Assembly (NCBI GenBank): GCA_017501005.1
Contig: JAFVXT010000061.1
Coordinates: forward strand, 1-42,774
Reading direction: 5' to 3'
Length of the DNA stretch: 42,774 bases
Source: Clostridia bacterium
GTDB taxonomy: Bacteria; Bacillota; Clostridia; Oscillospirales; CAG-272
A program made the translations under genes and the position numbers. Below, one piece after another: positions 2,036 through 40,357 of the stretch. Each line of letters starts with the position of its first letter. The stretch's first letter is position 1. The notes beneath the pieces are model-generated. The model ran no database searches. It saw nothing but the letters and a program-made list of their open reading frames with translations, and was not told the origin of the DNA.

Positions 2036-4845
<2,810 letters not shown>

Positions 4846-5763: not shown

Positions 5764-5982
5764 ATGATCATGGATAAAATTGCGCTGGTTTTAACCATCA
5801 TCGGCGCATTGAACTGGGGGAGCATCGGGCTCTTTTCCTTCGATCTCGTGGCATGGCTCTGCGGCGGTCAGACCGCGCTTGTCAGCCGTGTGATCTATAC
5901 GGTCATCGCGCTTGCGGGTGTTTGGTGCATTTCGCTCCTTTTCCGTTCCGAAGAGGACCGCGAGGACGCAAGAGACCGATAA
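5764..5982 (+). CDS. DUF378 family small membrane protein
   Basis: About 72 aa. The ...LVLTIIGALNWGSIGLFSFDLVAWLCGG... signature (GxLNWG) is typical of DUF378/YuzA-like proteins. Confidence 0.7.
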   Translation: MIMDKIALVLTIIGALNWGSIGLFSFDLVAWLCGGQTALVSRVIYTVIALAGVWCISLLFRSEEDREDARDR

Positions 5983-6025: not shown

Positions 6026-6766
6026 TTAAATCAACGGCTTGACGAAATCCATGATCGTATTGATCAGATCGTATTCGCCGTTTTCTTTTTTGAAGCGGCC
6101 TGCACAGTGTCCGCCGGGCAGCTCAACCATTGGAATTTTTGCCTCGGGGAAGAAGTGAGTGATTGCGCGGTGGAAGAGCCTGTTTTGCTCGGCACGGCAA
6201 AACATATCGTTTGAGTAGTAGATGAGAAGCAGGGGCGTAAGCGTGAGGCTTTCATCGACAAAATAGAGCGGTGCGCCTTCGTCAATGCGTTCAAGCTTTG
6301 TAGAAGCTCCGCGCTCGCGCAGGACGTTAAAGTGCGTGGTCAACTGGGCGGAATCCGAAATGAAGCCGGTGAAATCAGAGGATTTTAAGCCGTGTGCGGC
6401 AAGATAATGCTTGTCGCAGTAGAGCATCATGGTCAGATATGCACCTGCTGACGAGCCCGAAATAAAGATCTTATCATTGCCGCCATAGGTGGCAATGTTT
6501 TTCTTGATCCATGCGGCACTTTCTGCAGCATCTTCGATGAATTCGGGGAAGCGCGCCGTGGGATACATACGGTACTCAACCGAGGCAAAAGCAACGCCTT
6601 GCGAAGTCAACGCTTCTGCCAGCTCGGGATCCATTTTGCGGTTTCCGTTTTCAATACCGCCGCCATGGAAGAAGATCACAGTGGCGAAATTGTCGTGGTC
6701 GGGCAAATAGAAATTAATCAACGCATTTTCGCGCGCACTGTACGGAACGTCAAATACTGTTCTCAT
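6026..6766 (-). CDS. Alpha/beta hydrolase (esterase/lipase-like)
   Basis: HGGG oxyanion-hole motif (FFHGGGIENG) and GSSAG nucleophile elbow. 246 aa. Confidence 0.75.
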   Translation of the reverse strand: MRTVFDVPYSARENALINFYLPDHDNFATVIFFHGGGIENGNRKMDPELAEALTSQGVAFASVEYRMYPTARFPEFIEDAAESAAWIKKNIATYGGNDKIFISGSSAGAYLTMMLYCDKHYLAAHGLKSSDFTGFISDSAQLTTHFNVLRERGASTKLERIDEGAPLYFVDESLTLTPLLLIYYSNDMFCRAEQNRLFHRAITHFFPEAKIPMVELPGGHCAGRFKKENGEYDLINTIMDFVKPLI

Positions 6767-6797
6767 GATTGATTCCTTTTACGCTTGTCAATAAATT

Positions 6798-7100
6798 TTA
6801 TTTTTCGGCTTTCTTTTCAGCGCGAAGGTGCTTGAAGTAGAGGAAAAGGTCGGTGGTGACCATAATGAAATTCAAAACGTAGAATGCAAATACCCACCAT
6901 TTGAAGCCGGGCTGATCGCAAACGAGAAGCTTGCCAACGATGCCGGCTACGTAGCCGAAATCAATGAGAAGCAAAAAGGGCAGGCTCTTGCCTTTGGTGG
7001 AGCGGGTTTGCAGGGATTTGATGATGTTGAGCGGCCAGGAGCAGCCGAAGCTGATGATCATGATGGCCTCTAAAATCGGGGCAATGTCTGAAGGGTTCAT
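6798..7100 (-). CDS. Small 3-TM membrane protein, PQ-loop/SemiSWEET-like (tentative)
   Basis: 100 aa with three hydrophobic helices. SWPLNIIKSLQTRSTKGKS resembles the PQ-loop motif context. Confidence 0.4.
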   Translation of the reverse strand: MNPSDIAPILEAIMIISFGCSWPLNIIKSLQTRSTKGKSLPFLLLIDFGYVAGIVGKLLVCDQPGFKWWVFAFYVLNFIMVTTDLFLYFKHLRAEKKAEK

Positions 7101-7161
7101 ATGTTTTTTCCTTTCTTTTGTTTGCTATCATTTCCACATATTATAGCATAGCTTTTTTTTC

Positions 7162-7220
7162 TTGTCAAGCAATCTTTTTTTATATAGAATATTGCTTTTA
7201 TGTATGAAATCTGTTATAAT
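7162..7220 (+). promoter_or_regulatory. Two candidate sigma-A promoters upstream of the ABC operon
   Basis: TTGTCA (7162-7167), 17 nt, then TAGAAT (7185-7190). Also an extended -10, TGtTATAAT (7212-7220). Confidence 0.4.
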
Positions 7221-7291
7221 ATAATTTGGTATTATATTTAGATTTTGAAAAAGCGTAAAAACGAGACTTTGCGCGGAAAGGGGTGTTTTTC

Positions 7292-9604
7292 TTGAAAAAG
7301 TGGGAAATACCTTTGGAGCTCGACCGATTGCCCCCCGATATTTTGAGTATTGCCGAGGAAAAAGGGATTCGGTACGAAGATATTCTGATCACATTTTATA
7401 CCGATAAAAATGCCGATTTCGGTGTGGCAGATACATACATTCTCGTGACCGGGCAACGCTTGCTTTCGGTGTGCGGTACGCGTGCCCTCGAAAAGAGAGT
7501 GGGGCGGCATTCCTACACGACCGAGCATTTGCGCGGCGTTTTTCACATTGATTCCATTGAAGAATATGCCCTTGATCAGCTGAAAAGCTTTCGTCTGACC
7601 GAGCATCTTTCGGGGGCGTCTTTGATTGTTGAAGGCGAAGAAGGGCCGCGCTTGCTTGCCGTGATGAGCGGCTTTTGCAAGCAATCGGCGCAGGTTTTCG
7701 TGCGCTATGCCAACCGTTTGCTCAAGGAAGGACGTGTGACGGTTGATGAAGAAGACCTTCCGAAAAATCATGCCTGCCCGACGTGTGGCATGCGTTATCC
7801 CGATAAAAACCGCCATATCTGTCCGCACTGTATGAAAAGAGGCTCGCTCTTCGGACGGATGCTGAAGTTCTTTTTCAAATACAAGGGCTATCTGATTGTC
7901 ACGCTCCTATCGCTTCTGGCAATGACCTTGCTTGGCACGCTCACCCCCTATCTTTCCTCGGGCTTTTTCTTTGACGAGGTGCTTGACGAGGGCGGCAGCT
8001 TCTACGGCCGGGTGGCATTTCTCCTCTTTTTGATTGTAGGGACTCGCCTCATCACCGCATTTTTTACAATGGTCAATAATTACGTGACCTCGGTCATTGC
8101 CGCACGTGTGGTCTACGACCTGAAAAAGGTGATTTTCGGCTCGATCGGGCGGCTCTCGCTCGGCTTTTTCACGGCACGGCAAACGGGCGGCCTTATGACG
8201 CAGGTCAACCGCGATTCCAATACCATTTACGAATTTTTCTGTGACGGTGTTCCGTATTTCATTGTCAACATCGTGCAGACGGTGGTGCTTGCCGTTCTTC
8301 TTTTCGTCATCAATCCCCTGCTGGCGCTTTGCTCACTTTGCACGGTACCGCTTTTTCTGTTCGTTATGAAATGGCTTTATAAGAATCAAAGTCGCTTGCA
8401 CGCACGTTGCTATTCGGGAAGCAGTCGGCTGAATTCTTTTCTTGCCGACGTTTTGTCGGGTATTCGTGTGGTCAAGGCCTTTTCGCGCGAGCAGGACGAG
8501 ATCGGTCGATTTGACGAGCGCAACCGCCGTGTGGCCGAAAGCGATCGAAATCTCGCCGTTTACAACAACTACGTTTTTCCGCTGTCGTCGCTCATTTTGT
8601 ATGCGGGCAATATCATTGCCTGGGCAGTTGGCGGCTTTATGGTCATGAAGGGCATAGGCGGTATGACCTACGGCTCGCTTCTGACCTTTATCGCATACAT
8701 CAATATGATTTATACGCCAATGAACTTTTTCGTGACCATGGTCAACCGCACGGCCGATTGCAGTAACGCCATGCAACGCCTTTTTGAGATCATGGACGCG
8801 CGTCCCGAGGTTTCGGAAAAGGAAAATCCTGTTCGTATTGAGAAATTCCGCGGCGACGTTACCTTCCGCGAGGTTGATTTTTCCTATAATAAGAGCCGCA
8901 AGGTGATCGATTCTGTCTCCTTTTCGGTGAAAGCGGGAGAGAGACTCGGCATTGTCGGCCATACGGGCGCGGGGAAGAGCACGCTTGCCAATCTTCTGAT
9001 CCGCCTTTACGATACCGATTCCGGTGATATTCTCATCGACGGTTATTCGGTGCGCGATCTTGCTTTTGAGGATCTTTACCGCAATATCGCCATTGTTTCA
9101 CAGGAGACATATCTGTTTGTCGGCACCGTGCTCGACAATATTCGTTACGCTTGTCCCGATGCCACACCGCAAGAGGTCATCTCGGCCGCCAAGCTGGCAG
9201 GCTGCCACGATTTTATCATGAAAATGCCCGACGGCTACGAAACGCGCATTGGCTTTGGCTATAAGGACCTTTCGGGCGGCGAGCGCCAGCGCATTTCCAT
9301 TGCCCGCGCGATTTTGCGCGATCCGAAGATTCTGATTCTGGACGAAGCAACCGCCGCCATGGATACCGAAACCGAGCGGCGTATCCAAGAGGCCATTGAG
9401 CGGCTGACCGTTGGCAAAACCACGATCATGATCGCACACCGACTCTCGACCTTGCGAGAGGCCGATTTTCTTGTTGTCATTGAGGGCGGGCGTATTGCGG
9501 AGCGCGGCACACAGTCCGAGCTTCTTCAAAAAGAAGACGGTGTTTACCGCAAGCTCTATACCTTGCAGCAAGAGGCATTGAAAAATGCGGGCATTGCGGA
9601 ATGA
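7292..9604 (+). CDS. ABC exporter, fused permease/ATPase with a roughly 190-aa N-terminal cytoplasmic domain and zinc ribbon
   Basis: Walker A GHTGAGKST, signature LSGGERQR, Walker B ILILDEATAAMD, six-TM exporter domain. The N-terminal extension ends in CPTCG...CPHC. TTG 7292 has better SD spacing (GAAAGGGG) than the ORF-track GTG at 7283. Confidence 0.85.
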   Translation: MKKWEIPLELDRLPPDILSIAEEKGIRYEDILITFYTDKNADFGVADTYILVTGQRLLSVCGTRALEKRVGRHSYTTEHLRGVFHIDSIEEYALDQLKSFRLTEHLSGASLIVEGEEGPRLLAVMSGFCKQSAQVFVRYANRLLKEGRVTVDEEDLPKNHACPTCGMRYPDKNRHICPHCMKRGSLFGRMLKFFFKYKGYLIVTLLSLLAMTLLGTLTPYLSSGFFFDEVLDEGGSFYGRVAFLLFLIVGTRLITAFFTMVNNYVTSVIAARVVYDLKKVIFGSIGRLSLGFFTARQTGGLMTQVNRDSNTIYEFFCDGVPYFIVNIVQTVVLAVLLFVINPLLALCSLCTVPLFLFVMKWLYKNQSRLHARCYSGSSRLNSFLADVLSGIRVVKAFSREQDEIGRFDERNRRVAESDRNLAVYNNYVFPLSSLILYAGNIIAWAVGGFMVMKGIGGMTYGSLLTFIAYINMIYTPMNFFVTMVNRTADCSNAMQRLFEIMDARPEVSEKENPVRIEKFRGDVTFREVDFSYNKSRKVIDSVSFSVKAGERLGIVGHTGAGKSTLANLLIRLYDTDSGDILIDGYSVRDLAFEDLYRNIAIVSQETYLFVGTVLDNIRYACPDATPQEVISAAKLAGCHDFIMKMPDGYETRIGFGYKDLSGGERQRISIARAILRDPKILILDEATAAMDTETERRIQEAIERLTVGKTTIMIAHRLSTLREADFLVVIEGGRIAERGTQSELLQKEDGVYRKLYTLQQEALKNAGIAE

Positions 9605-12448: not shown

Positions 12449-12990
12449 TTCTTGAATATTTTTTGCCCGACAGATGCTTTCGAAGCTTTGATAAGCTGAC
12501 ACCCGAGCGCTTGCAAAGGCTCGGCATCAGGGGACTGATTCTCGATATCGATAATACCATTGCGCCGTATGAGGAGGCCATGCCCGGCAAGCGCGCGCTC
12601 GAGTGGTTTCATGAAATGGAGGCGGCAGGCATTCGCATTGCCTTCGTATCCAATAACGAGGCCGAGCGCGTAGATCTTTTTAACCGCGATCTCGGCTATC
12701 CGCATTTTTCGAAAAGCGGCAAGCCGCTCGGCAAGAACGTGCGCCGCGCCATGCGTGCCATGGGAACGACAAGAAAAAACACAGCCTTGATGGGCGACCA
12801 GATCTTTACCGATATCCTTGCCGCCCGCTTGGCGGGGCTGAAGCGTACCTTTTTGGTGCCGCCGATCAAGGATAAAACCGATTGGCTTACGCAAGGGAAG
12901 CGCTTGCTCGAAAAGCCGATCCTTTATGCCTATCGCAAAAAGGCGGCACTCCTGAATTTGAAAAGAAGGAGAAAGAACCATGCGGAGTAA
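12445..12990 (+). CDS. yqeG: YqeG family HAD-IIIA phosphatase
   Basis: DIDNT (DxDxT) motif, VSNN, and GDQIFTDI motif. About 181 aa. The GTG start overlaps the upstream stop. Confidence 0.8.
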   Translation: MILEYFLPDRCFRSFDKLTPERLQRLGIRGLILDIDNTIAPYEEAMPGKRALEWFHEMEAAGIRIAFVSNNEAERVDLFNRDLGYPHFSKSGKPLGKNVRRAMRAMGTTRKNTALMGDQIFTDILAARLAGLKRTFLVPPIKDKTDWLTQGKRLLEKPILYAYRKKAALLNLKRRRKNHAE

Positions 12991-13846
12991 GGCTCTGTTC
13001 GGCCCCGGCGGTAATAGCGAGGCCTTTTACCGCGACGGCTGTAAATCCACGCGTCAAGCGCCCGCCTGGGTCAAGCGCATCGGCCTTGATGCTTATGAAT
13101 TTGAAGCGGGGAACGGCATTTCTGCCGGTGACGAAACCCTGGCCGCGATCGGGGCGGCCGCGTATGACGAGGGCGTGCATATGTCGCTTCATTCGCCCTA
13201 TTACATTTAGCTTTCGGGCATCATTCCCGAAAAAAGACTGAAAAGCATTGATTATATCAAAAGCAGTCTGCACGCGGCGGCGCTTCTGCGCGCAAAGACC
13301 GTGGTCGTGCATACGGGCAGTGCGGCAAAGATCGACCGTAGCGAGGCCATGAAGCTCGCCGCAGATACTCTCGACCGAACGCTCGCGGAGGTGGGCGAGG
13401 ACGGTGCGTTTATCGGCCTTGAAACCATGGGTAAGGTCAATCAGCTCGGCACGCTCGAAGAGGTCATCGCACTTTGCAAAATGAGCCGCCGTCTTGTGCC
13501 CGTCGTTGATTTCGGTCATATGAACGCACGTGCGTGCGGCGGTGTTTTTCCCGACGTCGATGCGTACAGACGCATTTTTTCTGCCATCGGAGAAGCACTT
13601 GACGATCAGACAGCGCGCAATTTGCATTGCCATTTCTCCAAAATCGAATGGACGGGCGCGGGTGAGAAAAAGCATCTGACCTTTGAGGATGCGGTGTACG
13701 GCCCCGATTTTGAGCCGCTCATGGAATGCCTGGTCCGCGAGAATCTGACACCGACCGTCATCTGCGAATCCGCAGGTACGATGAGTGACGATGCCTTGGC
13801 CATGAAGAAAAGCTATGAGAGGGCACTTGCGCAATGGAAAAATTAA
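12980..13846 (+). pseudogene. AP endonuclease family 2 / xylose-isomerase-like TIM-barrel protein interrupted by one in-frame TAG (13208-13210)
   Basis: ORFs 12980-13210 and 13301-13846 share one frame, and the frame stays open from 13211 onward. The joined product reads ...HMSLHSPYYI*LSGIIPEKRLKSIDYIKSSLHAAALLRAKTVVVHTG..., a continuous conserved TIM-barrel sequence. Confidence 0.75.
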
Positions 13847-16180: not shown

Positions 16181-18106
16181 ATGATTCAGGACAAGCGTTG
16201 TGTCCATCTGGATTTCCACACCTCTGAAAAAATCAAGGGCATCGGCGCGGATTTTAAGCGCGAAGAATTTGCAGCCGCTTTGAAAGAAGCCAATCTTGAT
16301 TCCATCACCGTTTTTGCCAAGTGCCATCACGGTAATTTGTATTATCATTCGGATAAGTATTTTACGCATCCGCACTTGACCATTCCTCTGCTTGAGGAGC
16401 AGCTTGCCGCTTGTAAGGAAGCGGGGGTTTCGGCAAAGATCTATATTTCCGCAGGCTTTGACGAGCACAGCGCGATGGAGCACCCCGAATGGCTGCAGGT
16501 GACAAGCGACGGCACGCACCCCAATCTGCTCATGCCCGGCTTCAAGCGCCTTTGCTTCAACACGCCCTATCTTGACGTGCTTGTCGGTCAGACCGAGGAG
16601 ATCATGGAAAAATACAATCCCGACGGTGTGTTCTACGATATCGTTGCCGAAGGTCCTTGTACTTGTCGCTGGTGCATGCGCGATATGGCGAAAAAAGGTC
16701 TTGACTATCGCAAGTATGAAGACTTGATGAAGCAAGCGCGCGACGTCTTTATGAAATTTACCGAAACCCTGACAGGCACCGTCCGCCGCTATCATCAAGA
16801 CACGCTTGTTTTCTATAATGCGGGCAATTTCCCTGTCGGTGCGCAGTACCGTCTCAATTGCTGCGATCAGCTTGAGGCAGAATCTCTGCCGACAGGCGGT
16901 TGGGGCTATGACCATTTCCCGATGACCATGTCTTATATTCGCCGCAACGGCAAGAATTGTATCGGTATGACCGGTAAATTTCACCGTTCCTGGGGCGATA
17001 TGGGCACGTATAAGTATAAAGACGCATTGCTTTACGAGGGTGCGCAGTGCCTTGCCTTTGATGCAGGTCTTTCTGTCGGCGACTCCTTGCATCCCGGCGG
17101 AAGAGTTGATTCCTATACTTACGAAAACATTGGTAATACCATGCGCTATCTCGAAGAAAGAACGCCGTGGCGCGGCGGCGAATTTCTGCCAGAATTTGCC
17201 GTTTTGGGCGAAGGCGCTTCAAGGGGCGTGCAGGGACGCATCGGTGCCAGCCGTATGTTCTTTGAGAAAAAATACCTCTTTGATATCATTGACAATGCAG
17301 AGATTTCCAACCGTTATCCCCTGATCGTTCTGCCCAATGACGCGGCTCTGACCGACGCGGCATATAAGGCCCTGACCGATTACGTTGCAAACGGCGGTAA
17401 GATCCTTGCTGTTGGTCAGGCGCCGATGTACCGAGGGCAAATGGCCTTTGATCTCGGTGCGGAAATGATCGGCCCCGATGAGCTCACGCCGACATTCTTC
17501 CGTGCCCGTTACGAGCTTGCGGCAGCGAGCGGCATGACCATGTTCGTGGAGAATGCGACGTACGATATCCGTGCGACAGGCGAAGTGCTTGCCGATAAGT
17601 TTTCACCGTATTTCAAGCGGGAAGGCTTGAATTTCTCGGGCCATAGTCATACCTCGGCCGATTTCAGTAAGGTCTCGCCTGCCATCACGATGGGCAAGCA
17701 CGGCATTTACGTATCCTCGTGCGTTTTTGCCGAGTATGCAAAATTGGGTAGCCTGAACGACAAGCAGCTTGTGCTTCCTTTGATGGAAATGCTTCTCGGA
17801 AAAGAGAATAAGACCGTTGAAACCAATCTGCCGTCAAACGGTAAGGTCACGCTTTATAAGAAGGGCGGCTCCTACATTCTGCACCTGCTTTATGCCAATA
17901 CCGTCAAGCGCGGTGAAAACATAGAGGTCATTGAGGATCTTGCCACCTTGGCTGATATCAACGTTTCCTTGAAGCTTCCCGAAAACGTGACGCGCGCCAT
18001 CTGCCGTCCGTCGGGCAAGGAGATTGCCTTGACCAAGGACGAAAACGGCCGCATCAGCTTTACGCTTGAACGTTTCCGTTGTCACGAGATCATTGAACTG
18101 ATCTGA
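16181..18106 (+). CDS. Putative glycoside hydrolase (TIM-barrel N-domain, GHL6-like; family uncertain)
   Basis: 641-aa ORF with a GGAGAA SD. The N-terminus VHLDFHTSE...ITVFAKCHHG resembles hypothetical glycosyl hydrolase 6-type proteins. No catalytic residues were verified. Confidence 0.4.
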   Translation: MIQDKRCVHLDFHTSEKIKGIGADFKREEFAAALKEANLDSITVFAKCHHGNLYYHSDKYFTHPHLTIPLLEEQLAACKEAGVSAKIYISAGFDEHSAMEHPEWLQVTSDGTHPNLLMPGFKRLCFNTPYLDVLVGQTEEIMEKYNPDGVFYDIVAEGPCTCRWCMRDMAKKGLDYRKYEDLMKQARDVFMKFTETLTGTVRRYHQDTLVFYNAGNFPVGAQYRLNCCDQLEAESLPTGGWGYDHFPMTMSYIRRNGKNCIGMTGKFHRSWGDMGTYKYKDALLYEGAQCLAFDAGLSVGDSLHPGGRVDSYTYENIGNTMRYLEERTPWRGGEFLPEFAVLGEGASRGVQGRIGASRMFFEKKYLFDIIDNAEISNRYPLIVLPNDAALTDAAYKALTDYVANGGKILAVGQAPMYRGQMAFDLGAEMIGPDELTPTFFRARYELAAASGMTMFVENATYDIRATGEVLADKFSPYFKREGLNFSGHSHTSADFSKVSPAITMGKHGIYVSSCVFAEYAKLGSLNDKQLVLPLMEMLLGKENKTVETNLPSNGKVTLYKKGGSYILHLLYANTVKRGENIEVIEDLATLADINVSLKLPENVTRAICRPSGKEIALTKDENGRISFTLERFRCHEIIELI

Positions 18107-18269: not shown

Positions 18270-19703
18270 TTAGATGGAATGAATGCCGTTCTTCGCATCG
18301 GCATTGTCATCAAGATGGTGCATTTTCTTCTTGCGTGCTTCAAAGAATTTGACTGCAACCTGCTCGAAGAGAGCAAGCGAAAGCAGGTCTTCTTCCTGAA
18401 TAGCATAGGGGGCAACACGCTCACGCAAGGTGGCAATTTCGTCGGGAATATTATCTGCGGGACGGCAGGTGATCGGCTCGTCGTCGCCGATGATGCGGCG
18501 GCGGAATTCTTCACTGATCTCGACGGGAGTCTTGCCGTATTCGCCGCGAACCAAGCCGCGGAATTCCTAGGTGGTCGTCTGGTAGCGTTCACCGCCTGCG
18601 GCGACTGCCAAAACGTTGCTCACTGCCTGCGTACCGACGATCTGCGAGGTAGGCGTGACGAGCGGCGGGAAGCCTGCGTCCTCACGAACGCGCGGAACCT
18701 CAGCCAGAACCTCGGGCAATTTGTCGGATTTGCCTGCCATCTTGAGCTGGGAAACAAGGTTGGAGAGCATGCCGCCGGGCACCTGATAGCGGAGCACGTT
18801 GACGTCCACCTTCAGCACCTTGGTGTCGATCAGGCCGCTTTCCAGATATTTGGTGCGGAGCGAATCGAAGTGGCGGGAGATCTCGTTGAGGCTGTCAAGA
18901 TTGAGACCTGTATCGTAGGGAGTATCGGCAAGCGTTGCAACCATAGCCTCGGTCGAGGGCTGCGACGTACCCATCGAGAAGGGAGAAATCGCAGTATCAA
19001 TGACGTCAACACCGGCTTCAATCGCCTTCAGGAGCGTCATCTAGCCAAGACCCGACGTGTAGTGCGTGTGAAGCTGGATCTTGATATCGGCGGGTGTGCC
19101 GTTTGCGTCCTTCGGAATGACCTCCTTGATGGCCTTGACGAGCTGATATGCGTCAAACGGCTTCAAAAGACCTGCCATATCCTTGATACAAATGGAGTTT
19201 GCACCCATTTCGATCAGCTGACGTGCGTAATTTGCGAAAAACGCATTGTCATGCACGGGGCTGGTGGTATAGCTGATGGCCGCCTGCACGTGGCCGCCTT
19301 CCTTGATGGTGGCGTTGATGGCGGTCTCCAGGTTGCGCGCATCGTTGAGCGCATCGAAAATACGGATAATGTCGATACCGTTCGCAATCGACTTCTGTAC
19401 GAAGTAAGCAACGACGTCGTCTGCATAGTGACGGTAGCCGAGAATGTTCTGGCCGCGGAAGAGCATCTGAAGCTTGGTGTTCTTTACGTGAGAGCGAATG
19501 GTGCGCAGTCTTTCCCACGGATCCTCGTTCAAAAAGCGAAGGCAGGAGTCAAAGGTTGCGCCGCCCCAGGCTTCAAGAGAGTAGTAGCCGACTTTGTCCA
19601 TCGCGTCGAGGATCGGCAACATTTCTTCGGTCGTCATACGCGTTGCCGCCAAGGACTGATGCGAGTCGCGCAGAACGGTTTCTGTAATGAATACTTTTCC
19701 CAT
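18270..19703 (-). pseudogene. OadA / PycB / transcarboxylase-5S type carboxyltransferase (no biotinyl domain) interrupted by two in-frame TAG codons
   Basis: Three same-frame ORFs (19041-19703, 18567-19040, 18270-18554) join into about 477 codons: ...ITETVLRDSHQS..., ...[29 protein letters not shown]..., ...[22 protein letters not shown].... The TAGs are at 19041-19043 and 18567-18569. Confidence 0.85.
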
Positions 19704-19729: not shown

Positions 19730-20938
19730 TTATTTGAAGATTTGCAGGAACACACCTGCCGCAACGGCAGAGCCGATGACACCTGCCACGTTCGGGCCCA
19801 TGGCGTGCATGAGCAGGAAGTTGGAGGGGTTCTCCTTGCGTCCGACGTCTTGCGCAACACGTGCCGCCATCGGAACTGCGGAAACACCCGCACTGCCGAT
19901 CAGCGGATTGATCTTGCCGCCCGACAGGAAGCACATCAGTTTTCCCAAAAGCAAACCGCCGCAGGTCGAAAGAATGAAGGCCGAAAGCCCGAGAACAATG
20001 ATCTTCAAGGTTTCGGGTGCAAGGAAACGTTCAGCACTTGCCGTGGCACCAACCGAAACGCCGAGCATGATGGTGACGATGTTGATCAGCGAATCCTGTG
20101 CGGTCTTGGACAGACGGTCTGTGACACCGCAAACGTTCAGAAGGTTACCGAACATGAGAAAGCCAATAAGGGGTGCTGCATCGGGCACGAGAAGAAGCAC
20201 GATGATGGTGACAAGAACGGGGAATGCGATCTTTTCAAATTTGGACACGGGACGGAGCGCAGGCATGGTGATTACGCGTTCCTTTTTTGTGGTCAAAAGA
20301 CGCATAAATATTGGCTGGATCAACGGAATCAGAGCCATGTAGCTATAGGCCGCAATGGCAATGGCACCGAGCAAGTGAGGTGCAAGCTCCTTGGTGACGA
20401 GGATCGCCGTCGGGCCGTCCGCACCGCCGATGATACCGATGGCGGCTGCGGCTTCGGGGGCAAAGCCAAGCAAAAGTGCGCCGAAGAAGGCGGCAAACAC
20501 ACCGAATTGGGCGGCAGCACCGTGGAAGAGCGTTTTCGGATTGGCGATGAGAGGCGTAAAGTCGGTCATTGCACCGATACCGAGGAAGATGATCGAAGGA
20601 TAAATACCGAGCTTGACACCGAGATACAGAATGTCAAGAAGACCGCCTTCGTTGGCAACCAAACCTAAAATATCGGTCATTTTTTTCTCTGTATCGACAA
20701 ACCAATCCATATGGAAAATGCCGGTTCCCGGGAAGTTTGTCAAAAGCATACCGAACGCGATCGGCAGAAGCAGAAGCGGCTCGAACTTCTTGACGATGGC
20801 AAGATAAAACAGAAGGATTGCGATACCGATCATGACAAGCGAGCGCCAGTCGTAATCCGTACCCTCAACGATTTTGGCAATGCCCGTGCTTTTGGCAAAG
20901 CCGACGATCGCATTCCAGATATTTTCAAAAAGACTCAT
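19730..20938 (-). CDS. Sodium ion-translocating decarboxylase beta subunit (OadB/MmdB/GcdB family)
   Basis: 402-aa polytopic membrane protein with GIGAMTDF and GGADGPT motifs. Confidence 0.9.
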   Translation of the reverse strand: MSLFENIWNAIVGFAKSTGIAKIVEGTDYDWRSLVMIGIAILLFYLAIVKKFEPLLLLPIAFGMLLTNFPGTGIFHMDWFVDTEKKMTDILGLVANEGGLLDILYLGVKLGIYPSIIFLGIGAMTDFTPLIANPKTLFHGAAAQFGVFAAFFGALLLGFAPEAAAAIGIIGGADGPTAILVTKELAPHLLGAIAIAAYSYMALIPLIQPIFMRLLTTKKERVITMPALRPVSKFEKIAFPVLVTIIVLLLVPDAAPLIGFLMFGNLLNVCGVTDRLSKTAQDSLINIVTIMLGVSVGATASAERFLAPETLKIIVLGLSAFILSTCGGLLLGKLMCFLSGGKINPLIGSAGVSAVPMAARVAQDVGRKENPSNFLLMHAMGPNVAGVIGSAVAAGVFLQIFK

Positions 20939-20959: not shown

Positions 20960-21361
20960 TTATTGGAGCGAGACGAGCAGATCACCCGCCTGAACAGAAG
21001 CACCCTTGGAAACGCTGACAGATGCCACAACACCGTCCTGCGGTGCGGGAATGTCGTTTTCCATCTTCATAGCCTCAAGCACGCAAAGAACGTCGCCCTT
21101 CTTGACAGCTTGGCCTGCGGAAACCTTCACGTCAAGGATCGTACCGGGCATCGGTGCGGACACCTTAACGGAGCCTGCGGCAGCAGGAGCTGCGGCCTTG
21201 GGAGCGGGTGCAGCGGCAGGAGCGGCCTTGGGCGCGGGTGCAGCCATAGGAGCGGGAGCAGCGGCAGGAGCGGGTGCGGGAGCGGCCGTTGCCGTAGCGC
21301 CTACCTCTTCAACCATAACTTCGTACGTCGTACCGTTGACGGTGATATTATACATTTTCAT
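20960..21361 (-). CDS. Biotin carboxyl carrier protein (biotinyl domain with Ala/Pro linker)
   Basis: C-terminal EAMKMEN biotinylation motif with a long AP-rich linker. 133 aa. Confidence 0.9.
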
Positions 21362-21406: not shown

Positions 21407-21721
21407 TTAAGAAACGCGCTTGAATGAAACCACGCGGAAGCGTGCATTGGGCGTTTCGTTTTCGGCGGCGGCAATGGCGGCGGCAATCACGGCAACGATC
21501 TCTTCATCGTTGGTTTTCACGACAACCGCAGGCGTGGGTTCTGCAGCTTTTTCTTTTTTATCAGCCTTGCCCATGAACAGGTTACAGGCATAATGGAAGA
21601 TCTGCAGAGCCAGAAAGATGATGCCAAGAACGGAAAACACCATCAGCATGCCGAGGATCAGCATTTGCGTACCGCCGTTGAGCGCGCCCGATAAGGTTGA
21701 GGTATCAATATTATCAAACAT
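21407..21721 (-). CDS. OadG family small subunit of Na+-pumping decarboxylase
   Basis: 104 aa with a single N-terminal TM helix and a C-terminal ...EEIVAVIAAAIAAA... motif typical of OadG. Confidence 0.7.
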   Translation of the reverse strand: MFDNIDTSTLSGALNGGTQMLILGMLMVFSVLGIIFLALQIFHYACNLFMGKADKKEKAAEPTPAVVVKTNDEEIVAVIAAAIAAAENETPNARFRVVSFKRVS

Positions 21722-21736
21722 AAAGATGTCTCCTTA

Positions 21737-23179
21737 TCAAAGCGGACGAACTGCGTGACGGTAGCTATCGGCACAGCCCTTGCTTGCAAGCAGATGAAGG
21801 GAAGTGCAGATGCGCTGACGAAGCTCGGATACCGTGATGATATCGTCGATCTCTCCGGTGGAGGCGGCGGCAACAGGGGAAGCAACCGAAGCCTTCCATT
21901 CGTCGGCAAGCTGTTCCTTGGTCGTATTCAGCGTGACCTTGTCGTTCCAAGCAAAGGCAACGGCATCGTCGGCAGGCATAGCACCGATTTCAGCGGTGTC
22001 CAGCGCATAGGCAATATCGGCACCGAGTGCCTTCGAGCCGAGCAAAACGTAGGATGCGCCGATTGCGTGGCCGAGCACGATCGAAACCTTCGGTACGGCG
22101 GCAGACGCATAGGAAAGAGCAAGCTTTGCAAGATCAGCGGCAAAGGAAGTGCTTTCCGCAGAATCGGTAAGCGAAAGTCCCGCGCTATCGGTAAGCGTGA
22201 CGATCGGCAGGCCGAACGCATCGCAAACGTCGATAAAGCGAGCGGCTTTCTTGGCGGCGGCAGCGGTCAGGCGGCCTTCATCGTCCTGATAAGAGGATGC
22301 GCAAATACCGCATTTGATGCCACCGACGGTGGCAAGCGCCGTGACAAATTCGGGCGCGAAAGCAGATGAAACCTCGTGATAAATACCGTTATCCGAAACG
22401 GCGGCGAGAATGGCACGCGCGTCACCCGCAAAATCAACGTCGCCGAGCATGCGGTTCAAGCTGTCTGCGCTTTCCTCGGGATAAAGGTTTTCTGCTGCGT
22501 TAGAAGGAAGAAAATCGATCAGGCGGCGGGCTTCGCCGAGTGCTTCTTCAAGGCTTGCGGCCTCTTCCGCAGTCAAGGGCTTCCATTCTTCTGCCTTCTT
22601 TTCAAGAAGAGAAGGGGAGGTCACGTAAAGCGAGGTGCCCTTCGGGGTGATCGTGAAATCGTACATAGCGGCAAGTGCGGCCATCGAGCCGATGCAAAGA
22701 CCGCCGATCACGGCAATCTGCGGAATGACACCGCTGGCATCGCTGACGGTACGCATGATCGATGCGTAGCCCGAAAGTGCGCCGACACCTTCGAAAATAT
22801 CAGCTCCTGCCGAGTCAAAAATACCGATGATCGGTGCGCCTGTTTTGAGCGCGAGATCGTAAAGGTCGCAGATCTTCTTTGCATGACGGGCATCGATCGC
22901 GCCCTTCATGCGGGAAGGATCCTGGGCGAATGCAAATACGCGTGCACCGTTGATGGCACCGTATCCGCAGACAACACCTTCAAATTCTTCCGATTTTTCG
23001 GTAGAAACGAATTCGCAGAAGGTGCGTTTCGTGTAAGCGCCGAGCTCCACAAAGGTGTCGGCATCAAAGAGTGATTTGAGACGGTTGCGTGCGACGGAAT
23101 CTGCCATACATGCTTCGCGAAGCGCTTCGGCAGAGGGCAATCCGCACACAGCGTTCTCACTTTTTTTCGTTGTGTCCAA
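21737..23179 (-). CDS. Acyl-CoA carboxyltransferase subunit (MmdA/GcdA/12S-like carboxyl transferase)
   Basis: 480 aa with two crotonase-like halves. It is the first gene of the cluster with oadG-like, BCCP and beta-subunit genes. Confidence 0.8.
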   Translation of the reverse strand: MDTTKKSENAVCGLPSAEALREACMADSVARNRLKSLFDADTFVELGAYTKRTFCEFVSTEKSEEFEGVVCGYGAINGARVFAFAQDPSRMKGAIDARHAKKICDLYDLALKTGAPIIGIFDSAGADIFEGVGALSGYASIMRTVSDASGVIPQIAVIGGLCIGSMAALAAMYDFTITPKGTSLYVTSPSLLEKKAEEWKPLTAEEAASLEEALGEARRLIDFLPSNAAENLYPEESADSLNRMLGDVDFAGDARAILAAVSDNGIYHEVSSAFAPEFVTALATVGGIKCGICASSYQDDEGRLTAAAAKKAARFIDVCDAFGLPIVTLTDSAGLSLTDSAESTSFAADLAKLALSYASAAVPKVSIVLGHAIGASYVLLGSKALGADIAYALDTAEIGAMPADDAVAFAWNDKVTLNTTKEQLADEWKASVASPVAAASTGEIDDIITVSELRQRICTSLHLLASKGCADSYRHAVRPL

Positions 23180-23367
23180 ACTGTTCTTTTGACTTGCGGT
23201 GAGGCAAGTCTCTCCTTCCCCTTAATGATAGTTATAGTAGGCTTTTTCAAAAACAGCCCAAATTACACCAAATATACTATACCACCAAATAGAAAAAAAG
23301 TCAATAACAAAACAAAAAAAACGGCAAAATACACCAAAAATTCCTTCGAAAAAAGCACAACTTGTTC

Positions 23368-38965: not shown

Positions 38966-40357
38966 CTACGGCACGGTATACCCGGGGTACTGTCCTTCGG
39001 CGGCGCGGTTCCCGTAATAAAGATCCTCATAGACGTTCGTGATGCTATCCCAAAGATTTGCCCCCACAACGCCCTCGGGTCCTGTCAGAGCGAAAACCTC
39101 CTGAAATGCGCGGACGGCATTTTCGGTGGCGGGGCCGAATTGGCCGTCAACCGTGACAGAGGGAATGTCGGTATAGGTCTGCGCAATGTAATTGAGGTAT
39201 TCCTGCAAAAGCACTACGCTTTCACCGCTTGAGCCGCGCACGAGCGTGGTGCCCGGAAAGGGAATGATCCTTCCTTCTCGGTATTCTAACGGAATGGAGG
39301 CAACGAGCGAAAGATACACGTTATAGATGGAGTCCCACGTCGGCTCGTTCACAACGCCCGTGACGGGCAGGCCGTATTCCGTCTGGAATGCGCGGACGGC
39401 TTCCTCGGTGGCAGGGCCGAATTGACCGTCGGCGGTCAGCGTCGGTACGTTCGGATTGAAATTGGCAATGTAACGCAAAAAGTATTGCAGCACACGCACA
39501 CCGATGCCGACCGAACCGATCGAGAGCTCCTCGGGGTATTGTGTTGAGCTTTCGGAAAGCGTCAGCCCCTCCGAATCGAGCGAGGCCAGCCTTTTGACAG
39601 CCGTATAAATATACTGGATGCGATACCACGTGCCCCGACCGACGATGCCGTCGTCGGTGAGAGAAAAGATCCTTTGAAATTCGCGCACGGCCTCTTCGGT
39701 GCTTTCGTCAAAAATGCCGTTGACGGGATAGATCTTCGGAATGGCGGGGTAGTTGGCAGAAATGCGGTTCAGCTGCACCTGAATGCGCTGCACGTCCGAG
39801 CCGATCGAGCCGAGCCGAAGGGGAGAGAGCGGTACGCTTTCTTCAATATCGCCGACGGGAACGTTTGTGACGATGTCGATATTGTTGCCGTAATAATTGG
39901 TGAGGATCTGGTAAGGCGTCAAGCCGCGCTCGGCCAGTGTGACAGTCCCCCATTGCGAAAGGCCGTTGCACTGCACTTCAATGCCGTCGCAGTAGGCGGT
40001 AAAGAGAGGCTCGATGCTCCCTTGGCGGCGCACGTAGCTATCGAAGATATCGTCAACGATGAGTGAAATGTTTTCAAAAATATCGCGGCCGTAGATGAAG
40101 GATTGGTCGTTGGCGGTTGAATTGGTGATGTCAAAATCGTAGCCCTGGCTTCTGTAAAACTCGGTGTAAATGCGGTTGAGCGCAAAGGAGATCTGCGCAT
40201 AGATATTGGCGCGGATGGCGGATTCGGGCCACGTGGGATAGATTTCGCTTGAAGCGACGTTTTTGATGTATTCGGGAAAGGGAAGCGTGACGTTTTGCGC
40301 ATTTGCAGAAGGTCTGCCGAGATGGACGGTGATGTTTTCGGGGATAATGGGCGGCAT
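38966..40357 (-). CDS. Peptidoglycan-binding protein: conserved N-terminal domain plus three PG_binding_1 repeats; the only CDS here ending in TAG
   Basis: N-terminus MPPIIPENITVHLG...YIKNVASSEIYPTWPESAIRANIYAQISFALNRIYTEFYRSQGYDFDITNST.... Three repeats of DGxFGxxTxxAVRxFQ follow. Stop TAG at 38966-38968. Confidence 0.75.
   Translation of the reverse strand: MPPIIPENITVHLGRPSANAQNVTLPFPEYIKNVASSEIYPTWPESAIRANIYAQISFALNRIYTEFYRSQGYDFDITNSTANDQSFIYGRDIFENISLIVDDIFDSYVRRQGSIEPLFTAYCDGIEVQCNGLSQWGTVTLAERGLTPYQILTNYYGNNIDIVTNVPVGDIEESVPLSPLRLGSIGSDVQRIQVQLNRISANYPAIPKIYPVNGIFDESTEEAVREFQRIFSLTDDGIVGRGTWYRIQYIYTAVKRLASLDSEGLTLSESSTQYPEELSIGSVGIGVRVLQYFLRYIANFNPNVPTLTADGQFGPATEEAVRAFQTEYGLPVTGVVNEPTWDSIYNVYLSLVASIPLEYREGRIIPFPGTTLVRGSSGESVVLLQEYLNYIAQTYTDIPSVTVDGQFGPATENAVRAFQEVFALTGPEGVVGANLWDSITNVYEDLYYGNRAAEGQYPGYTVP

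Follow-up and report, generated by a model that had tools for sequence, protein, structure and literature searches.

Can a carboxyltransferase gene that carries two in-frame amber codons, and that closes an operon of otherwise whole genes, still yield its protein, or has it been lost? The locus lies on a 42,774-nt contig of a Clostridia bacterium (assembly GCA_017501005.1, contig JAFVXT010000061.1), which was analysed over its whole length and is referred to here as the window. An initial annotation, made from the letters alone, had joined three minus-strand ORFs into a carboxyltransferase of the OadA/5S type of about 477 aa and had placed them in one continuous frame. This frame indeed runs over 477 codons to a TAA end, with exactly two internal stops, both TAG:

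18270..19703, minus strand: oadA-like gene for a 5S-type carboxyltransferase without a biotin domain of its own, 477 codons, two TAGs

The ORFs had been described as abutting at the TAG codons, which is exact for 19041-19703 and 18567-19040 (they meet at TAG-ATG) but not for 18270-18554, which starts at a TTG four codons past the second TAG; this late start leaves the frame unbroken.

The domain content of the joined product and its end-to-end alignments with PDB entries both agreed with the proposed family. Pfam searches returned HMGL-like (PF00682, E = 1.5e-18) and PYC_OADA (PF02436, E = 3e-50), and full-length alignments that span both TAGs were obtained with Vibrio OadA (2nx9, E = 3e-146), PycB (5ks8) and the transcarboxylase 5S subunit (1rqb), the E values for PDB entries ranging from 3e-146 to 2e-133. 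The intact conspecific allele that served as reference, hereafter L104 (gene 6615-8048 of the 8.3-kb ENA contig ERZ28653793 scaffold_18874), passes the NCBIfam equivalog NF008985, named 'oxaloacetate decarboxylase subunit alpha', with 724.8 bits for a cut-off of 718. This gene was the sole part of the contig used as intact reference, and N gaps at 1113-1173, 4401-4410 and 5949-5958 distort the gene calls of that contig (OAD_beta was called at 462 aa and the 12S gene lacked a Pfam match). Residues D13 (LRD), K174 (ICIKDMAG) and H212/H214 (HTHYT) are invariant in the orthologue alignment and align to 2nx9 and 1rqb; we take them to be the metal-site Asp, Lys and His-x-His of the published 5S structure. 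The gene thus resembles Vibrio cholerae OadA, PycB and Propionibacterium 5S in its HMGL-like TIM barrel, its PYC_OADA domain and its KDM and HTH metal-site motifs. It differs from these in lacking a fused biotin domain, a separate MmdC-like carrier being encoded upstream, in sharing its operon with a 12S/MmdA-type carboxyltransferase and in carrying TAGs at codons 221 and 379, so that the window allele, as written, does not encode the single polypeptide typical of the family.

The closest intact orthologues, all of 477 aa and with 86-91% amino acid identity, come from uncultured Clostridia/Eubacteriales MAGs, one of which (L001, GCA_045649045.1) is syntenic with the window over ~20 kb; more distant relatives, at no more than 77% identity among the matches listed, are MAGs from ruminant and other guts that carry the labels Eubacteriales, Oscillospiraceae or Ruminococcus. 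In ~30 gut, bovine-gut, goat-gut and faecal metagenome runs there is DNA about 99% identical to that of the window, which indicates that the species is widespread in animal guts; the highest share of the window's words in any indexed run is 0.72. These relatives and conspecific populations allowed us to ask which codon stands at each TAG column. The sites that distinguish the window allele at the protein level are as follows:

19041..19043, minus strand: TAG1, codon 221; TCG (Ser) in 8/8 conspecific runs and in L104; private coding-strand C>A
18567..18569, minus strand: TAG2, codon 379; AAG (Lys) in 7/7 covering runs and in L104; private coding-strand A>T
18796, minus strand: private missense change A303V; GCG or GCA in the others, GTG in the window
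18602, minus strand: private missense change S368A in a variable loop, from the conspecific comparison

At plus-strand position 19042, the contigs of eight gut metagenome runs from five studies all read G where the window reads T, and at 18569 the seven covering runs all read T where the window reads A. L104 differs from the window by 12 nucleotides within the gene, and the two proteins differ only by S221*, A303V, S368A and K379*. With TCG and AAG in the conspecific alleles, both TAGs are single-base changes private to this assembly. The ten closest orthologues have Ser, Ala or Thr in column 221 and, without exception, Lys in column 379, L001 using TCC and AAG, respectively; this is the comparison that the initial annotation had proposed, and its outcome runs against the implied view that the TAGs are something beyond plain lesions. 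The TAG alleles were absent from every independent dataset examined (metagenome runs, ENA contigs, protein records and two JGI metagenome pattern scans), and none of the indexed runs held the 31-mers that contain TAG1 (two words sampled). The window's OAD_beta protein likewise had no entry among the protein records. As had been claimed, the gene contains neither indels nor other stops, its 1434 nt matching the length of the intact conspecific allele. The further statement that it shows no visible decay held for indels but overlooked the private A303V and S368A changes. Two nonsense codons had also been judged odd for an old pseudogene; the oddity disappears because the lesions are very young, being private to one assembly within a species that is ~99% identical.

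We next considered how selection acts on this gene. The L001 orthologue, which is 83% identical, was judged uninformative for such recent lesions, and the dN/dS check that had been suggested was replaced by a comparison within the species. Among conspecific populations, 37 of the 38 oadA polymorphisms are synonymous, and the remaining one is a missense change that falls in a variable loop. Thirty of the sites come after TAG1 and eleven after TAG2, which places the whole gene, including the parts beyond both TAGs, under strong purifying selection in the species. The private changes of the window allele amount to two nonsense, two missense and one synonymous, that is, four of five non-synonymous as opposed to 1/38 in the species (Fisher p = 2e-4), although the TAGs themselves account for two of these four and both missense changes are mild. 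As a background, we took the 8.6 kb of the window that are covered by at least two conspecific ENA contigs, where the private changes comprise 24 synonymous, three missense, four intergenic and no nonsense substitutions (p = 0.004 for the non-synonymous contrast with oadA). This clean background indicates that the assembly is generally clean and that the damaging excess is specific to oadA, as expected for a gene released from selection. Sense codons in the relatives together with an excess of private non-synonymous changes in the window lineage would fit the pattern by which the initial annotation itself would have recognized a plain pseudogene. However, column 303 holds Ile in Vibrio OadA and Val in PycB, so A303V is tolerated in the wider family, and decay other than the TAGs themselves is thinly supported.

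The carboxyltransferase gene is the last of five in a minus-strand Na+-decarboxylase operon, which reads as follows:

23276..23304, minus strand: sigma-70-like promoter match upstream of the operon, TTGACT-17-TATAGT with TG, a match to the consensus only
21737..23179, minus strand: first gene, 12S/MmdA-type acyl-CoA carboxyltransferase, intact; Pfam Carboxyl_trans, E = 2e-82; TIGR01117 match below its cut-off
21407..21721, minus strand: OAD_gamma/MmdD-like small membrane subunit, intact; matches to family profiles
20960..21361, minus strand: MmdC-like biotin carboxyl-carrier subunit, intact; NF047903 match
19730..20938, minus strand: Na+-translocating decarboxylase beta subunit, intact; Pfam OAD_beta, E = 1e-155; TIGR01109
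18218..18261, minus strand: intrinsic terminator that ends the operon, a hairpin followed by a U-run; -27.8 kcal/mol, z = -8.3

The initial description of a last cistron in an otherwise intact operon with its own strong terminator was therefore accurate, the four upstream genes being whole and the hairpin reaching z = -8.3. The MmdA-like subunit, the delta/gamma anchor, the MmdC-like carrier and the beta subunit, all in one operon, recall the Veillonella-type methylmalonyl-CoA decarboxylase, the MmdABCDE Na+ pump, from which the operon departs in having a 5S/OadA-type fifth gene rather than MmdE and in scoring below equivalog cut-offs. It encodes both a 12S/MmdA-type and a 5S/OadA-type carboxyltransferase alongside a single biotin carrier and the beta and gamma subunits of the Na+ pump, a five-gene layout kept in the related MAGs L001-L003 and in L104, and could encode a dual-substrate decarboxylase or a membrane-bound complex resembling transcarboxylase. 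On the other side of oadA, a 641-aa putative glycoside hydrolase of the GHL6 family (16181-18106, plus strand) lies between oadA and a 148-aa acidic zinc-ribbon-like gene, and is absent from the corresponding position in L001.

Comparisons elsewhere in the window uncovered two more lesions, which brings the private damage to three TAGs and one homopolymer frameshift in 42.8 kb:

13208..13210, plus strand: TAG in frame within an AP_endonuc_2/TIM-barrel (Nfo/CbiR-like) gene at ~12980-13846, the third private one; four runs and a 90% relative have TCG (Ser77), L001 has TCC
4051..4057, plus strand: T7 homopolymer in ligA with a private +1 frameshift; T6 in four conspecific runs

The T7 frameshift scrambles the last ~36 residues of ligA (2147-4177, plus strand), at the BRCT end, and deletion of one T restores the canonical C-terminus. 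Further private missense changes relative to all covering conspecific contigs map to mcsA (F98C, 37646), an HAD gene (Q15P and P86S, 24078 and 23866), an esterase (V189F, 6202) and a xerC/D-like gene (D56G, 27256), several of them being transversions. A methylation or other sequence motif shared by the three TAG sites was considered and rejected, their contexts being GGC-TAG-ATG, ACC-TAG-GAA and ATT-TAG-CTT.

The start of the contig is unusual in a different way. Bases 1-67 repeat 408-474, where an AzlD-like gene has its 3' end, in inverted orientation and at 99% identity; the arms are 340 nt apart, and several GATGAAATC/GATTTCATC hairpins lie between them. The whole (1-474) may be an artefact of foldback at the end of the contig, or else a small element that the inverted repeats delimit. 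Word depth over 1-367 reached 125-285x in four metagenomes, as opposed to about 6x elsewhere in the window, and contigs of high depth lead from 1635 back to 295 through 24 additional letters. Such depth implies that the stretch has a counterpart, at 97% or more, in a far more abundant entity, perhaps a small and promiscuous mobile or repeat element.

Whether the TAGs could be translated in this organism depends on how the codon is used elsewhere. A peptidoglycan-binding gene (38966-40357) of the window terminates at TAG, as it does in four conspecific contigs and a 96.5% relative, whose sequence past this codon diverges in a non-coding manner. Relatives use TAG for ~10% of their stops and the window for one of 36 genes, which is not significantly lower; depletion of TAG was thus rejected as a sign of recoding. 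Neither the tRNA scan nor the Rfam scan of the window found anything. Programmed read-through or recoding as a property of the organism, be it through pyrrolysine (Pyl) or a reassigned amber codon, is accordingly not supported, and we hold it to be very improbable: it could draw on nothing but in-frame TAGs in otherwise intact genes, with the Lys>TAG change at codon 379 chemically reminiscent of Pyl, whereas the TAG columns are not conserved even inside the species (TCG and AAG in the eight runs and L104, Ser/Ala/Thr and Lys in the orthologues), the replaced residues differ (Ser, Lys, Ser), TAG is a normal stop in the relatives and the terminator of a conserved gene in the window, and a context of Pyl-dependent methyltransferases is absent. 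A strain-level amber suppressor, either a supD-like tRNA-Ser(CUA) or one borne by a phage or prophage, that lets the TAGs be partly read through and full-length OadA be made, is unlikely too, if somewhat less so. The tRNA-Ser that reads TCG is the one that mutates to supD-type suppressors, and two of the three TAGs replace TCG serine codons; each of the three premature stops in 42.8 kb is a TAG, and the interrupted genes look otherwise undecayed, oadA having no indels or additional stops. Yet 51% of the nonsense-creating substitutions in the window's coding sequence give TAG, so that three of three would arise by chance with p ~0.13 and two TAGs in one gene are not in themselves beyond chance, while TCG>TAG makes up ~10% of TAG paths (p ~0.03 for two of three from TCG); both figures are suggestive at most. 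Moreover, one of the three TAGs replaces an invariant Lys, a genuine and conserved TAG terminator lies in the same window, the use of TAG as a stop is not significantly low, no tRNA lies within the window, and the ligA frameshift would be left unexplained. Gut phages that recode TAG to Gln through suppressor tRNAs are known (bioRxiv 10.1101/2021.08.26.457843; PMC7886860; PMC10879173), and the window shares with them, and with pyrrolysine decoding, in-frame TAGs in otherwise intact coding sequence of a gut microbiome organism. It differs from the phages in being chromosomal bacterial DNA syntenic with related MAGs, in its unconserved TAG columns with Ser, Lys and Ser rather than Gln, in the lack of a suppressor tRNA in the window, and in the use of TAG as a terminator. 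If a suppressor with many tolerated in-frame TAGs did exist, it would be a rare instance of nonsense suppression at the level of a strain, here in an uncultured lineage of gut Clostridia.

Equally improbable as programmed recoding is a working split gene, in which ribosomes would terminate and reinitiate at the TAG-ATG (19043-19038), and reinitiate also at the TTG at 18554, and the resulting fragments would assemble into an active enzyme. The ATG directly after TAG1 and an AGGA ~10 nt upstream of the TTG would suit such a scheme, but this ATG encodes the family's invariant Met222 rather than a new start, the break falls inside the TIM barrel, seven residues past the His212/His214 metal ligands, and the conspecific proteins and all orthologues are single chains; a search of protein records returned no called protein corresponding to the 220-aa fragment. 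The explanation that carries more weight, and that we consider a serious possibility though short of probable, is that all three TAGs and the ligA T7 are errors of sequencing, assembly or polishing, in which case the strain would have TCG, AAG, TCG and T6, with the gene intact. Each of the four lesions is private and absent from the eight runs and the ENA contigs, the one in ligA alters the length of a homopolymer, which is a classic type of error, and no indexed run holds the TAG1 31-mers, as far as the two sampled words tell; about four of 36 genes would be hit, including the essential ligA, which is implausibly dense for a living cell, and very dense for a free-living gut bacterium whose other genes look well constrained. 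On the other hand, the rest of the window appears accurate (24 synonymous and three missense private changes over 8.6 kb), and private indels numbered one among the matches listed in the ~19 kb surveyed. Random substitution yields nonsense in 2.4-3.5% of changes, or about one per 21-29 missense, so three nonsense errors would need to be accompanied by dozens of missense errors, which were not seen, and the three TAG sites lack a shared motif that could elicit systematic base-calling error. That the consensus is a chimera with an abundant foreign homologue of oadA was rejected as well, since at the loose end at 19046 the foreign contig reads GCT TCT ATG and the conspecific allele GGC TCG ATG, neither of which supplies the A of TAG.

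Together, these data favor, with a probability of about 0.5 as judged from sequence comparison, that a normal, species-conserved oadA/5S gene was knocked out in one strain or assembly by two independent single-base substitutions, TCG>TAG at Ser221 and AAG>TAG at Lys379. The feature is real as written but ordinary: a known gene family with strain-private nonsense lesions. We infer that these lesions are more likely real mutations than base errors. A first nonsense mutation would then have been followed by drift, during which the second TAG, A303V and S368A were gained. Translation most likely stops at codon 221, leaving a 220-residue fragment that would keep D13, K174, H212 and H214 and lose the C-terminal domain along with the last part of the barrel, and that is for this reason predicted to be most likely inactive. 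The four intact upstream genes could still form an MmdA-type Na+ pump driven by acyl-CoA, without the oxaloacetate/pyruvate-side carboxyltransferase, and their integrity suggests that loss of the 5S-type subunit may be tolerable. The locus resembles ordinary nonsense-mutation pseudogenes of bacterial strains in its single-base premature stops relative to intact conspecific alleles, its restriction to one lineage and the extra non-synonymous changes in the gene; it differs from them in an unusually high local density of lesions, with a third TAG and the ligA frameshift nearby within 42.8 kb.

That three TAGs and a homopolymer frameshift, all of them private, cluster in this way is a quality warning for the assembly, and annotation should mark the gene as a pseudogene or as possibly affected by a sequence error. 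For the organism, the preferred reading, a gene inactivated by two recent nonsense mutations, predicts that the Na+-pumping decarboxylase operon of the strain would be without its oxaloacetate/pyruvate-side carboxyltransferase.
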